A stretch of DNA of 64,000 bases from Bdellovibrionales bacterium. GTDB taxonomy: Bacteria > Bdellovibrionota > Bdellovibrionia > Bdellovibrionales > JAGQZY01. Both the position numbers and the translations under genes were made by a program. Of this stretch, positions 19,770 to 45,636 are shown piece after piece. Each line of letters opens with the position of its first letter. Positions within the stretch are counted from its first letter, which is position 1. Below the pieces are notes generated by a model that had not been told where the DNA came from, did not search any database, and saw nothing but the letters and a program-made list of their open reading frames with translations. The stretch lies in NCBI GenBank assembly GCA_964230645.1, contig CAXRHT010000002.1, positions 288,001 to 352,000 of the forward strand, in the 5' to 3' direction.

Positions 19770-20041
19770 TCTATTGTCATTAGGAACCATTTGTCATTCT
19801 GAGCAATTCGTCCTTCTAAGCAATTCGTCATTCTGAGCGAAGCGAAGAATCTTTAGCTATTACAGGGAGATCCTTCGCTTCACTCAGGATGACAGGCAAC
19901 AATACGCTCAGGATGACAAATAGCAATCTGTCATTCTTAGCCATTTGTCATTCTGAGCGGAGCGAAGAATCTACCGCCACTGAGCTCACATGGCGAACCA
20001 TAGTCCTCGGCAACAGGTCCTTCGCTCCGCTCAGGACGACA
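19770..20041. repeat. REP-like cluster: two inverted REP doublets with reiterated outer ends
   Basis: Full copies at 19826-19852 (+), 19868-19894 (-), 19946-19972 (+), 20015-20041 (-). 17-bp partial units at 19787-19837 and 19924-19957; partial copy at 19905-19918. Confidence 0.9.
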
Positions 20042-20117
20042 ATATGCAGTAGACGATATGCAAAAGACGATATCTAGTAATGGGGCCTGAGTCATTACAC
20101 TCAAGCCCCCTTTTGTT

Positions 20118-25102: not shown

Positions 25103-26553
25103 AGTTCCCCCTCACCCATTTCATGTAAATAAGTGCGATTGGCTAAGAACTGTACTGGATCTCTGAGTAAAAATTCGAGCATAGCAAAATAACTCAAACC
25201 CGCTTCCTTAGGAACATGTGAGCCGAGGAGGTTTTGAAGAAGTGATAACACTCTTCTCTCGGTGGCATCGCTATAGGTTTGCGAGAAAATATCATCGGGC
25301 AAAGAATTGCGTAGTAATATAAATCGGGCCAATAGATCCATTATTGGTCCTTGCTTATCGCCTGAGCCTTGTTGGATTTGAACATAATTTATAATAAGGT
25401 TTTCCATTTCCTGAAAAAACTCATCAATAGTTGAAATACCATAAAGGTCTTGTGGCAGCTTCTTATAGGCAATGTCTAACTGTGATTTGTAAAAATCTCG
25501 GATTTTTTCCTCGTTCCTTAAACCATTGGCATTTCCAAACAAAGGCTGATGAAAACGGAGATTAAAATATTTACTCAAAAAATCAGATCCCTTGATATGA
25601 AAGATATAATAGCGCTTTTCCTTCTTGGTCATGAAAACAGGAAAACCTTGGGCATCTAAAAGGGGATCTATATCTAAAGTGCGCTGATAATAGGGCACTA
25701 ATTTTTCGCTTGAGTAAAAAACGATATCAACATCGTCGTTTTCAATATAATTTTTGCGACCAAAATTAAAAAAGCTTCTCTGATTGTAGTGCAGATCAAG
25801 CAGGTCTGCGGCCTGAGCAAACAAAGTTAACAAAGCTGAGTCCTGCTTGCCAGCAACACTACCAAGTCCCAGTGACCAGGTGTACTGCGACCTGGAAATG
25901 CCTCGGGCTTTTAAGGCCTCATCCAACTGAAAGCCTGGAAAAACCTGTTCAGCGATCTCCTTGGTGTCGCTCTCAGAAAGTTCGGGAACAGTGCGCCTGC
26001 GAGAAAAAGACTTCATAACGGGGGAAGAATCAAAGATTCTGAGGGCTGAGAAAAGAGCTCCTTGAGTGCTGGTGAAGTTTGAGGTCTCATTTTCACGGCG
26101 AGAAAGGTTAAGTTGGGGGAATCGCCCGTCCTCAACACTCTCCACACTGATAATTTTAAGGCGATGGGGAGATAAGCGACGATGCAGAGAAAAAGCTCTA
26201 TCAACCTCTTCGGCCGAATAGAACCCACTTCGCTTCCACTCCATAAGAACGCGAGCCACCACTGTTTCGGAGAGCTCTTTAAAAGAGTCAATGGGCTGCT
26301 CGTTTAACTGCATCCCACGAGCCTGATCGTTACGCCGACCGCCATCCATAGAAAAACTGGCCGTTCTTTGAATACGAATATTAGAACCTGGTCCATTGCT
26401 GGCGAAAACAGACTGACAACGTAACATTTTATGACCAATATTTACGGCACTTTGATTTGATACTGAATCATACACAGAGATAAAATAATCAGTCGCCATA
26501 ACCATGGGACTGGTGACTAGTACCATAAAAAGAAACAAAAATTTGAACCGCAT
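25099..26553 (-). CDS. Secreted hypothetical protein (paralog of 23756-25102)
   Basis: Likely start ATG 26553 (MRFKFLFLFMVLVTSPMVMA signal peptide). Confidence 0.75.
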   Translation of the reverse strand: MRFKFLFLFMVLVTSPMVMATDYFISVYDSVSNQSAVNIGHKMLRCQSVFASNGPGSNIRIQRTASFSMDGGRRNDQARGMQLNEQPIDSFKELSETVVARVLMEWKRSGFYSAEEVDRAFSLHRRLSPHRLKIISVESVEDGRFPQLNLSRRENETSNFTSTQGALFSALRIFDSSPVMKSFSRRRTVPELSESDTKEIAEQVFPGFQLDEALKARGISRSQYTWSLGLGSVAGKQDSALLTLFAQAADLLDLHYNQRSFFNFGRKNYIENDDVDIVFYSSEKLVPYYQRTLDIDPLLDAQGFPVFMTKKEKRYYIFHIKGSDFLSKYFNLRFHQPLFGNANGLRNEEKIRDFYKSQLDIAYKKLPQDLYGISTIDEFFQEMENLIINYVQIQQGSGDKQGPIMDLLARFILLRNSLPDDIFSQTYSDATERRVLSLLQNLLGSHVPKEAGLSYFAMLEFLLRDPVQFLANRTYLHEMGEGEL

Positions 26554-26727
26554 TGCTCGGTAGTAGTGCAAACTCAGGGCCACTGCCCAGATTTGCCATT
26601 GGCCTCAACTCTCTTCTCTTTTTAACTGGCAGGTCAGAATTCACGATACCTATTGGTGACTCTTAAGCTTTTGGTACTTTTTTCATTTCTGCCAATAAGA
26701 TCAACGCTCATACCTTCCTTAAGCGGC

Positions 26728-27018
26728 CTTCCCATGTGTCGTCCTGAGGTTGCTTCCCAAATGTCGCCCTGAGGCTATTTCCCAAATGTTGTCCTGAGGC
26801 TACTTCCCAAATGTCGTCCTGAGGCTACTTCCAAAATGTCGCCCTGAGGCTACTTCCCAAATGTCGTCCTGAGGCGAAGCCGAAGGACCTTAGAGCGCTC
26901 GGCAGTTTCTCAGGTGACCACCAGGAGTTCGTTTTCGGAGAGATTTATAAATTGAAATCGTGAGAAGCGTAGGGGGCGAGGTTGTAAAGGTCCTTCGGCT
27001 TCGCCTCAGGACGACATT
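26728..27018. repeat. Six tandem 25-bp units running into a REP inverted doublet (REPIN/MITE-like)
   Basis: Unit CTTCCCAAATGTCGTCCTGAGGCTA at 26728, 26753, 26778, 26803, 26828, 26853. Perfect 32-bp inverted repeat 26860-26891 / 26987-27018. Confidence 0.92.
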
Positions 27019-27185
27019 GATTTTTGCTCGGGACAACTCATTTTAACCGAATCTGCTTTCACAACAAATCACCACATGAAAACCAGGAGCTATTAATTCC
27101 TTTTTTGTGCTTTTCTTTTTACAAATAAACTCATTCACCTCACAGCTAAGGTGAATTTAGCAATCTAAACTTAAAAGGAGATATT

Positions 27186-44284: not shown

Positions 44285-45208
44285 ATGCTCAGAATTTTCA
44301 GCTTGTTTTTCATCATCAGCATGGCACCGCACCTCAAAGCGGGCGACATTATCGCCGAAAACCAGACCTTTTACTACGGGGCGGGCTTTGAAGCCGGAGA
44401 GATTCAAAAAATGGCTCAAACATTTGAGCCCACCACCAAAATGAGCTCGGACGCTCTCAATCCTTTTTTCCGTGGAGATTTTAAAAAGAAATTGCACCAC
44501 ATCCTCAGAAGCTATCATATCTCACGTGCCGGAGACTTTGATGAGATTGTGGAGTTTTGCCACATCGACGATGACGATCGCTGCTACAACCATTTGCGAT
44601 TGGGTTACAAAACGGCCCGCCGTAACCTTTTTGGTTTTCTTCATCTCGAAGGCACAAGCAACAGCTCTTATAAAATTGAAACTCACTACTGTGGTGAGTG
44701 GTACACTAACAACGACTTTCCCGGTGGCAATAGCCTGGGCCCTATGAAAATACCATCGGCTAATATCGTCAACACCGAGCACACTCATCCGCAGAGCCAT
44801 TTCACTAATAAATTTTCTAAGAGCCTGCAAAAAGGCGATTTACACGCTCTTTTCCCTACCGTGTCCAGCGTTAACTCCACCAGAGGCAATGAACCCTTTG
44901 GTGAAGTGGTTGAGGTGATCAATGCTCCTTGTGCAGAGTCAGCCTTAGGCAACAACAAATACCATGAGCGTGTTTTTGAGCCCGCTGAAAGAGTAAAAGG
45001 TAACGTTGCCAGAGCCAAATTTTATTTCGCCACTCGCTACGACGTCAAAATCTCGGAACACGAGGAGGAAGTCCTAAGAGCCTGGCACAAACAAGACCCT
45101 GTTGACCGCGAGGAAAAAGAAAGAGCGCAACTCATTTTTGAAATCCAACATGTGCGCAACCCTTATATCGATCACCCCGAGTGGGTCGATCAAGTCGAAG
45201 ACTTCTAA
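44285..45208 (+). CDS. Secreted endonuclease I (His-Me finger) family nuclease
   Basis: NTEHTHPQS, DLHALFP...VNSTRGN, FEP...KGNVARA.FYF, W..QDPVD..E..R, RNPYIDHP. Confidence 0.9.
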   Translation: MLRIFSLFFIISMAPHLKAGDIIAENQTFYYGAGFEAGEIQKMAQTFEPTTKMSSDALNPFFRGDFKKKLHHILRSYHISRAGDFDEIVEFCHIDDDDRCYNHLRLGYKTARRNLFGFLHLEGTSNSSYKIETHYCGEWYTNNDFPGGNSLGPMKIPSANIVNTEHTHPQSHFTNKFSKSLQKGDLHALFPTVSSVNSTRGNEPFGEVVEVINAPCAESALGNNKYHERVFEPAERVKGNVARAKFYFATRYDVKISEHEEEVLRAWHKQDPVDREEKERAQLIFEIQHVRNPYIDHPEWVDQVEDF

Positions 45209-45239
45209 TCAAATAAGAAAATAAAAATTTAGTTTTGAT

Positions 45240-45268
45240 AAAAAGGACTCCCAAAGAGTCCTTTTTTT
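45240..45268 (+). terminator. Intrinsic terminator
   Basis: AAAAGGACTC-ccaaa-GAGTCCTTTTTTT after the nuclease operon. Confidence 0.8.
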
Positions 45269-45300
45269 ATACCCAAAAGGAGCCAAGCTTCTTTTTCCTA

Positions 45301-45378
45301 GTGTCATCCTGAGCGGAGCGAAAGAGTGTCATCTTGAGCGGAGCGAAGGAGTGTCATCCTGAGCGGAGCGAAGGATCT
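45301..45378 (+). repeat. Three tandem 25-bp copies of the REP-like palindrome
   Basis: GTGTCATC(C/T)TGAGCGGAGCGAA(A/G)GA at 45301, 45326, 45351; the last copy is complete (..AGGATCT). Confidence 0.9.
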
Positions 45379-45636
45379 TCTTACTGTAAAGGCGCCAAGC
45401 ACCTTTTTGGATATTTTAGGGCTTGTAAAAAAAGTTTACGATTGGATCTCTTTGGGGTGTTTAATGTTTTTACAGTGAAAAGGGTCTTAAAGAGGTATAG
45501 AGCCTAAAGCGACAATGAGGGGCACCTCCTGACACTTTTATTAACTTGTTTACAATTTGCCTGCAAAAAAAACAATCAAAGCTTCAAAGCCACTATAATA
45601 GGGACAAGCCAAACGGATAAGATTTTGGAGGACAAA

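Follow-up and report, generated by a model that had tools for sequence, protein, structure and literature searches.

The DNA analyzed here is a window of 64,000 nucleotides (positions 288001-352000 of contig C2) of a Bdellovibrionales genome from marine metagenomes (label G000; 3.78 Mb, 43% G+C, 3 contigs, 99.6% complete). At three loci that differ in gene context (one flanked by co-directional genes, one by divergent genes, and one following a gene end), the window contains copies of a short hairpin of the repetitive extragenic palindrome (REP) type, with an unpaired, GTC-containing tag at the 5' end, that are preceded on the tag side by tandem arrays of incomplete copies. Throughout, a complete copy is a match to the core GTCRYYCTGAG, with at most one mismatch allowed, for which the presence of the repeat's second half was also confirmed, whereas a half-copy is a core match that lacks this second half. 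At the same mismatch limit, the core occurs 27 times in the window, compared with 5.55 +/- 2.12 times in 100 shuffles (maximum, 11).

One of the loci starts with five 25-nt half-copy units on the plus strand (26728-26862; reported by Tandem Repeats Finder as 26728-26875, 25 nt x5.9, 88% matches), each comprising a spacer, the tag, and the 5' arm up to the loop, with cores at 26738, 26763, 26788, 26813, and 26838. The array abuts an inverted pair of complete repeats of a 27-nt variant (26863-27015), one on the plus strand (26863-26889) and the other on the minus strand (26989-27015), with an interior of about 95 nt; the 32-nt arms (26860-26891 and 26987-27018) are 100% complementary, and the prediction for each of them is a small hairpin of the kind expected (-5.3 kcal/mol, z about -2.2). 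A decayed half-copy on the minus strand (27027-27037) follows beyond the right arm, at a distance of 22 nt from the complete copy; it retains 9 of the 11 core positions and is 91% complementary to the unit at 26788-26798.

Another locus holds two inverted pairs, each with half-copies on its outer sides. Two 17-nt units consisting of tag, 5' arm, and a short spacer (19787-19826, plus strand; cores at 19793 and 19827; Tandem Repeats Finder, 19789-19838, 17 nt x2.9) are located upstream of the first complete repeat. This repeat (19827-19851, plus strand) and its partner (19869-19893, minus strand) form the first pair (19827-19893), with the tags pointing outward and arms (19827-19852 and 19868-19893) that are 88% complementary, and the pair is predicted to fold into one long DNA hairpin (-18.3 kcal/mol, z -6.3). 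A half-copy with an exact core (19907-19917) lies outside the right arm (19905-19918, minus strand), 24 nt from the complete copy (layout '< 24 <', C2:307793-308040). One or more 17-nt units (19921-19946, plus strand; core at 19930 with one mismatch; Tandem Repeats Finder, 19921-19958, 17 nt x2.2) precede the second pair, which is of the long form (19947-20040; repeats 19947-19971 on the plus strand and 20016-20040 on the minus strand, arms 19945-19972 and 20015-20042) and has a conserved spacer of about 44 nt; with a start-to-start spacing of 83, this pair (C2:307947) is one of 14 long-form pairs with that spacing. Outside its right arm, we found an array that had not been listed in the first-pass annotation of the window, namely, 14-nt tandem units (x2.6; 20038-20073, minus strand) that contain little beyond the tag (GACGA on the plus strand), an extreme case in which the break falls about 4 bases into the repeat.

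At the remaining locus, two 25-nt units that hold nearly the whole repeat, to about position 22-23 (45300-45352, plus strand; Tandem Repeats Finder, 45300-45375, 25 nt x3.0, 94%; k, the number of repeat bases per unit, is 23 for the proximal unit at C2:333353), are followed by the complete repeat (45353-45377, plus strand), which is the innermost unit of its array and a singlet, with no right arm in 45200-45600. Just before this array, a terminator-like hairpin, AAAAAGGACTC ... GAGTCCTTTTT, at 45240-45266 lies directly 3' of a gene ending at 45208. The first-pass annotation, made from the letters alone, had described the three arrays, the echoes outside the right arms, and the innermost position of the complete repeat at each locus, and all of this was borne out by the sequence and by Tandem Repeats Finder.

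Across the genome, there are 341 exact core matches, spread over 125 loci, and 271 complete copies as defined above. A complete copy consists, in this order, of GTC, a 5-base arm, GA, GC, a GNA loop, GC, GA, the return arm, and C, that is, a stem of 5 bp plus GA.GA plus 2-3 bp closed by a 3-nt loop. Covariation is apparent within single repeats (n=181): the pair 4-24 is A-T in 104 copies and G-C in 54, the pair 6-22 is C-G in 124 and T-A in 52, and the pair 7-21 is C-G in 135 and T-A in 42, with the inner GC pairs being fixed by the filter and hence uninformative, and GTC being part of the search pattern. The loop is GAA in 65 copies, GTA in 59, GCA in 33, and GGA in 16; the 27-nt variant (GGC GAA GCC) accounts for 50 copies. 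In 80% of the 341 copies, the tag is preceded by T (position -1), and it is unpaired in the predicted folds. Under standard DNA parameters, single copies fold weakly (-2.6 to -5.3 kcal/mol), and one of the three that were folded did not adopt the expected structure; for a 73-nt inverted doublet, a free energy of -18.3 kcal/mol is predicted (z -6.3), and none of 200 shuffles folds as well. An inverted downstream partner, with tags outward, is present for 225 of the 271 complete copies, and 46 are singlets. The pair spacings are stereotyped, at 42/43 (43 pairs) and 82/83 (30 pairs), the two arms of a pair belong to different subtypes, and the usual layout of a locus is '>>> pair <<<'. No Rfam family reached the gathering score in the window, where weak generic hairpin matches (miRNA models) were obtained at 5 repeat loci.

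The one-sidedness of the arrays holds genome-wide. Among the half-copies within 250 nt of a same-strand complete copy, 335 are on the 5' (tag) side and 9 on the 3' side, so that the complete repeat is the innermost unit far beyond the window. Core matches that are not attached to any complete copy (883) are at the level of noise as gauged by the reversed sequence (904), and lone 3' halves near complete copies likewise do not exceed noise (8 downstream and 7 upstream; 409 lone hits vs 516 in the control). Reiteration of the outer end is common: 158 of the 271 complete copies (about 58%) have a same-strand copy 12-45 nt upstream, and a walk by period recovers 153 arrays, of which 67, 37, 29, 11, 3, 4, 1, and 1 contain 1 to 8 units, respectively. 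The possibilities that outer-end reiterations are rare, or that they occur equally at inner ends, are thus both contradicted by the genome-wide counts. Arrays on the 5' side are found also at 21 of the 46 singlets, although singlets have both sides free, and arrays accompany all four arm subtypes (52-64%).

Periods range from 15 to 30 nt, with a mode of 20, and are constant within a locus. The number of repeat bases per unit, estimated from a simple match score, is most often 11-13 (77 of 158), and its distribution has a shoulder extending to 19; given that the 5' arm ends at base 12, the unit boundary falls either on the 5' edge of the loop or immediately past the GCGNAGC core. Complete copies contain an internal direct repeat, GCGAA GCGAA, at bases 11-20, and several 20-nt units resemble the repeat minus one GCGAA, so that breakpoint estimates for the GTCGTCTT subtype may blur. 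At the other border, the outermost tag follows the array start by 0-3 nt in 86 of 152 cases. The inter-unit spacer is missing upstream of the outermost unit in 103 of 152 arrays (m <= -3), compared with 32 in which m >= 0 (3 zero, 29 above); because the spacer is thus mostly not derived from the flank, break-and-join with filler fits better than microhomology-dependent slippage. The flank of the outermost unit matches the next spacer at 3.2-3.3 of 6 bases, compared with 2.2 for random pairing and 5.0 for inner spacers, and inner spacers of the same array are near-identical (8.15 of 10). A weak consensus at positions -6..-1 is common to all copies, with or without arrays, and to the half-copies. 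We also considered spacers as decayed 3' arms, but the local alignment score (3.66, against 3.39 and 3.17 in controls) led us to reject this as a general explanation.

The half-copy proximal to a complete repeat is of the same subtype as that repeat in 116 of 153 arrays, against 30.6 +/- 4.6 under random pairing (maximum of 45 in 2000 shuffles), which identifies the half-copies as local copies of the neighboring repeat. Identity to the complete copy is 0.895, 0.868, and 0.818 for ranks 1 to 3, the rank-1 value being biased upward given that half-copies were located via the conserved core. The first-pass annotation had further claimed that flank and period differ between loci. This is the case for most arrays; 26 of the 153, however, form 8 groups of distant loci that share both period and unit and differ in the number of units (6/1/2, 4/3, and 1-4), which implies that some units travelled with the element, that is, were inherited, and that their copy number changed later.

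The complete-repeat pattern was detected in 12 of 41 related genomes, mostly fragmented metagenome-assembled genomes (MAGs), the highest numbers being 181 in the genome under study, 76 in G022, and 44 in G015; one or two upstream half-copies are present at 6 of 30 loci of G015 and G022. REPs are normally lineage-specific. In a scan with one genome per species, the exact 26-mer TGTCATCCTGAGCGNAGCGAAGGATC was found unchanged across many phyla, in at least 129 loci. The groups represented among the matches listed (by record title) are Acidobacteriota, Chloroflexota, Bacillota, Bacteroidota, Planctomycetota, Verrucomicrobiota, Gemmatimonadota, Alpha- and Gammaproteobacteria, Nitrospirales, Aminivibrio, and Saccharibacteria. 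Such letter-for-letter identity is unusual for REPs and argues for either horizontal spread or a very strict recognition code. Among the listed cross-phylum matches, a half-copy lies upstream of 18 of 202 complete copies and downstream of none, with the mode of k at 12 and periods mostly of 18-24; tag-side polarity thus belongs to the repeat family and is not peculiar to this lineage. The array frequency is about 58% in the genome under study vs 9% in this sample.

REP and NTS/SRM tagged hairpins fill bacterial intergenic DNA. To our knowledge, the sole tested activity for the CGTC-tagged kind is in vitro cutting of single-stranded DNA (ssDNA) by Ssn. We compared the repeat with three published systems. 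Ssn GIY-YIG nucleases make a strand-specific cut in ssDNA of such hairpins a few nucleotides upstream of the tag, and their genes are found in the layout NTS-ssnA-NTS (Chenal et al. 2025, Nat Commun 16:2388, PMC11893778). As with SRM/NTS, the repeat described here is an oriented hairpin with GTC in the 5' tag, an A-T stem start in the commonest subtypes, and C after the stem, and is present in hundreds of mostly intergenic copies; in two other phyla, though not in the genome under study, it flanks a single-domain GIY-YIG protein gene of about 95 aa, a candidate member of the cd10448-like type, with the tags outward, in the manner of NTS-ssnA-NTS, and the side that Ssn cuts is the side that bears the arrays (PMC11893778). 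The two differ in architecture, the stem here being 5 bp + GA.GA + 2-3 bp with a 3-nt GNA loop.

The CGTC-tagged REP superfamily has stems of 8-9 bp starting with A-T and loops of 4-5 nt (Di Nocera, De Gregorio and Rocco 2013, PMC3733652) and is represented in 5 phyla, mostly in Alphaproteobacteria (BMC Genomics 14:522, PMC3733652). The shared features are the unpaired CGTC or TGTC tag at one end of the palindrome and the prevalence of head-to-head dimers with the tags outside, including heterodimers with conserved spacers, as well as the lack of a dedicated transposase (PMC3733652). We regard the repeat as related both to this superfamily and to the NTS/SRM-Ssn system. The published stem and loop definition does not fit the present repeat, with its 3-nt GNA loop and a first pair that is A-T in 104 and G-C in 54 of 181 copies, and the 26-mer is unchanged in many more groups than the 5 phyla of the superfamily (PMC3733652). 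Members of the superfamily are described as reiterated in tandem only as whole units or dimers together with flanking DNA, in contrast to the tag-side halves with fixed polarity seen here (PMC3733652).

For the REP/BIME system, a Y1 enzyme bound to REPs has been proposed to amplify REP clusters by nicking, primer extension, and strand transfer (Ton-Hoang et al. 2012, PMC3333891). This system resembles ours in that small hairpins with a 5' tag are read by a strand-specific enzyme, inverted doublets fold into a single long hairpin, tandem amplification varies between strains, and the 3'-OH from a cut near a hairpin is extended and re-joined (PMC3333891). BIME amplification adds whole REP pairs, however, whereas the unit added here stops at the loop of one hairpin (PMC3333891). 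The tag here is GTC rather than the GTAG of the REP-associated tyrosine transposase (RAYT, TnpAREP) system. REPINs, reportedly described by Bertels and Rainey in 2011, are similar in being inverted doublets with a short conserved spacer that are predicted to form one long hairpin. One-sided arrays of half-copies are not described in the available excerpts of PMC11893778, PMC3733652, and PMC3333891, and full-text literature searches retrieved no such description. The word 'tandem' does not appear in the excerpts of PMC11893778.

Any mechanism has to explain the tag-side polarity, which extends to singlets, the left border at the tag, the right border at the loop of the complete hairpin, and the local copying; it also has to explain the spacer that does not come from the flank, the constant period at each locus, the similar behavior of both arms, and the recurrence across phyla. 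We tentatively favor, short of even confidence, the scenario in which one-sided arrays arise by nicking of the tag strand and re-copying up to the hairpin loop, followed by growth and shrinkage through slippage. The nick would fall within a few bases 5' of the tag; extension from it, by strand displacement or by fill-in up to the loop, would displace the old strand and abort at the hairpin core; and a few filler bases would connect the new 3' end with the old 5' end, such that each round would add one unit of tag plus 5' arm beside the complete copy. Later expansion and contraction would occur by ordinary slippage, a step supported by the related loci that share a unit but differ in copy number. 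In effect, this would be a partial-unit version of the published BIME nick-and-copy model (PMC3333891). Beyond local copying with these borders, we infer every step of this scheme, including the enzyme acting in this genome. In flap processing by FEN1/Rad27, a displaced 5' flap that can fold escapes removal and is sealed in, resulting in local tandem gain beside structure-forming sequence; this process involves neither a sequence tag nor a fixed side and is invoked here only as a possible last step.

The involvement of a trans-acting nicking and re-copying enzyme, as suggested in the first-pass annotation, is thus backed in part, by the polarity across the genome and across phyla, its coincidence with the side cut by Ssn, the GIY-YIG genes flanked by the repeat elsewhere, and the published nick-and-copy model for REP clusters (PMC3333891). 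Several observations weigh against it. In the genome under study, a profile search with PF01541 detected only a UvrC-sized frame, and three small GIY-YIG proteins, of which two are repeat-flanked, gave a best E value of 0.18 as tblastn queries; the repeat-rich relatives G022, G015, G023, G024, and G019 each show a single, large GIY-YIG frame, and no Ssn-like gene was found in this genome or in these relatives. No gene lies between two complete repeats anywhere in the genome, the sole pair 200-4000 nt apart having no open reading frame, and neither of the two RAYT-like genes is flanked by the repeat. The published SRM search pattern fits none of the 271 copies and has 14 matches genome-wide vs 16 in the reversed sequence (PMC11893778). 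There is no leading/lagging bias by the replication strand assigned from GC skew, with arrays at 77 of 143 copies whose tag strand is the lagging template vs 76 of 128; the arrays behave as ordinary tandem repeats; 26 of the 153 arrays are not independent, some having been inherited instead of arising locally; the scheme does not account for the source of the 2-12 filler bases; and array frequency is highest in a genome without the nuclease and lower in the cross-phylum sample. A stronger version of the nick-and-recopy scenario, in which the arrays are the footprint of a directional, tag-reading process on a pan-bacterial hairpin family that is run here by an enzyme other than an Ssn GIY-YIG nuclease or a cognate RAYT, appears rather unlikely to us.

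Outside this lineage, a gene for a GIY-YIG protein of about 95 aa (PF01541) is flanked by the exact repeat, tags outward, in a Chloroflexota MAG (frame L089:466-789) and in Hymenobacter glaciei (frame L070:100-402), with PF01541 scores of 55.5 and 65.6 bits, respectively. Small GIY-YIG frames are present in 4 of the 5 array-bearing genomes tested, and a motif scan of 8 chosen cross-phylum loci identified GIY-YIG frames at 2. Among the 150 longest of 454 frames from 80 cross-phylum loci (116 aa or more), only unrelated housekeeping families were recognized, but this length cut hid the GIY-YIG frames of about 95 aa.

The search for a GIY-YIG or HUH/RAYT gene flanked by the repeat in this genome, which the first-pass annotation had recommended, thus yielded none. 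Its RAYT-like genes, C2:1838144-1838794 and C2:1598732-1599394 (216 and 220 aa), score 64.9 and 71.3 bits against NF047646, under the cut-off of 80, and we rejected a RAYT as the cognate enzyme given that both are flanked by other repeats: the former by a unique 19-nt inverted repeat, and the latter, on the minus strand, by inverted copies of a ACCTGGTTCTTTTTTCGGATGC-like repeat of about 24 nt. The ACCTGGTTCTTTTTTCGGATGC-like repeat is found at about 10 other places in the genome, some of them inverted pairs, and thus represents a small separate REP family with its own RAYT. Across the 41 relatives, the number of Y1_Tnp genes does not track the repeat (12 repeats and no Y1_Tnp in G007, no repeats and 17 Y1_Tnp in G028). 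Nor do we attribute the high array load to a loss of repair genes, given that MutS and MutL are present. SbcD_C was not found in the genome, in a weak test, as the model detects it in only 5 of 14 control genomes.

The main rival, and a serious one, is a replication error that requires no nuclease: a polymerase entering from the tag side would stall at the GCGNAGC core, the nascent end would realign upstream, and the flank and 5' arm would be copied again, with slippage subsequently fixing the period. We consider this possible although on balance unlikely. It would account for the lack of a candidate nuclease gene in this genome and its repeat-rich relatives, for the constancy of the period at each locus, and for the related loci where a common unit occurs in different numbers (6/1/2, 4/3, 1-4); furthermore, the inverted pair is predicted to form a very stable hairpin (-18.3 kcal/mol, z -6.3), and entry from outside on either strand of such a pair would explain arrays on both outer sides. 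Singlets, however, should then show arrays of 3' halves as well, whereas 21 of the 46 have 5' arrays and lone 3' halves are at noise. Moreover, the arrays begin at the tag, and their spacer mostly does not match the upstream flank (103 of 152), which is not the microhomology signature that slippage would leave; a polymerase should stall at the base of the stem and not at the loop; there is no leading/lagging difference; and MutS and MutL are present.

The persistence of the tag, the 5' arm, and the -6..-1 consensus of complete copies in the half-copies, along with the recurrence of the pattern across phyla, might instead reflect selection for an array of half-sites, for example, as docking sites for a hairpin- or tag-binding protein or as part of a transcript, in which case the half-copies would not be scars. 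This appears improbable because identity to the complete repeat drops with distance (0.895, 0.868, 0.818), the number of units is highly variable (67 arrays with one unit, 37 with two, and a maximum of 8), and the three window loci are in three gene contexts and match no Rfam family. Even less probable, in our assessment, are successive insertions, in which a resident copy would be truncated by new copies inserting into its loop or beside it, so that each half-copy would be what is left of a previous occupant. REPs are known to be targeted by insertions (introduction of NAR 40:3596, PMC3333891), every half-copy, including the outermost one, has its own repeat-like upstream consensus, and the outermost flank weakly resembles inner spacers (3.2-3.3 of 6 bases; random 2.2; inner 5.0), but the displaced 3' halves are not found above noise, the subtype matches that of the adjacent complete copy in 116 of 153 arrays vs 31 at random, and the near-identity of inner spacers (8.15 of 10) indicates local duplication. 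Mis-assembly, with the arrays being collapsed or expanded repeats, has hardly any likelihood. Short-read contigs do break inside the window array, at 26822 and 26872, but the contigs of 4 public marine-metagenome runs (one study, possibly the source sample) overlap and tile it as 26300-26822, 26796-26872, and 26846-26885 with 0 differences; point differences distinguish the units, the genome assembly comprises 3 contigs, and the same layout recurs in many independent, unrelated assemblies of other phyla.

No array-length variants were seen among the contigs of these runs, in which rare variants are dropped, and no RNA data set was listed as containing this stretch. A comparison of orthologous sites found no match for the 164-aa neighboring gene in 12 genomes of the genus, and the 273-aa neighboring gene is at most 60% identical in genomes of the genus, where its upstream neighbor is not conserved.

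A strictly one-sided scar that extends from tag to loop and recurs across phyla constrains any mechanism for the processing of tagged hairpins and offers a cheap genomic read-out. The occurrence of the heaviest array load in a genome without a recognizable nuclease makes it testable whether arrays need the nuclease or the hairpin suffices. Should an enzyme other than Ssn or RAYT indeed act here, the arrays could serve as a read-out in the search for the missing enzyme of 'orphan' tagged REPs and for their processing in vivo. The arrays are also likely to be strain-variable markers and can break short-read assemblies.

The repeat is also part of larger structures in this genome. An element of about 215 nt opens with the 27-nt tagged-repeat variant, which is followed by a long covarying stem around a conserved GC-rich center; it is located at C1:766532-766750, C3:591647, C3:381132, C1:823630, C2:223006, C2:400457, C2:494190, C1:143047, and C1:733650, matches no Rfam family, and contains a 37-nt palindromic insertion in three copies. 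In addition, several short inverted pairs and their arrays are nested in an outer inverted repeat, with CTGTCCGGTGGATTTTCC... on one side and ...CAATCCACCGAACAGCAG on the other (for example, C2:172281, C2:1399802, C3:273967, C3:470031, C3:523765, and C1:825853), which suggests a larger composite unit, similar to a miniature inverted-repeat transposable element (MITE-like), that is perhaps what actually moves.

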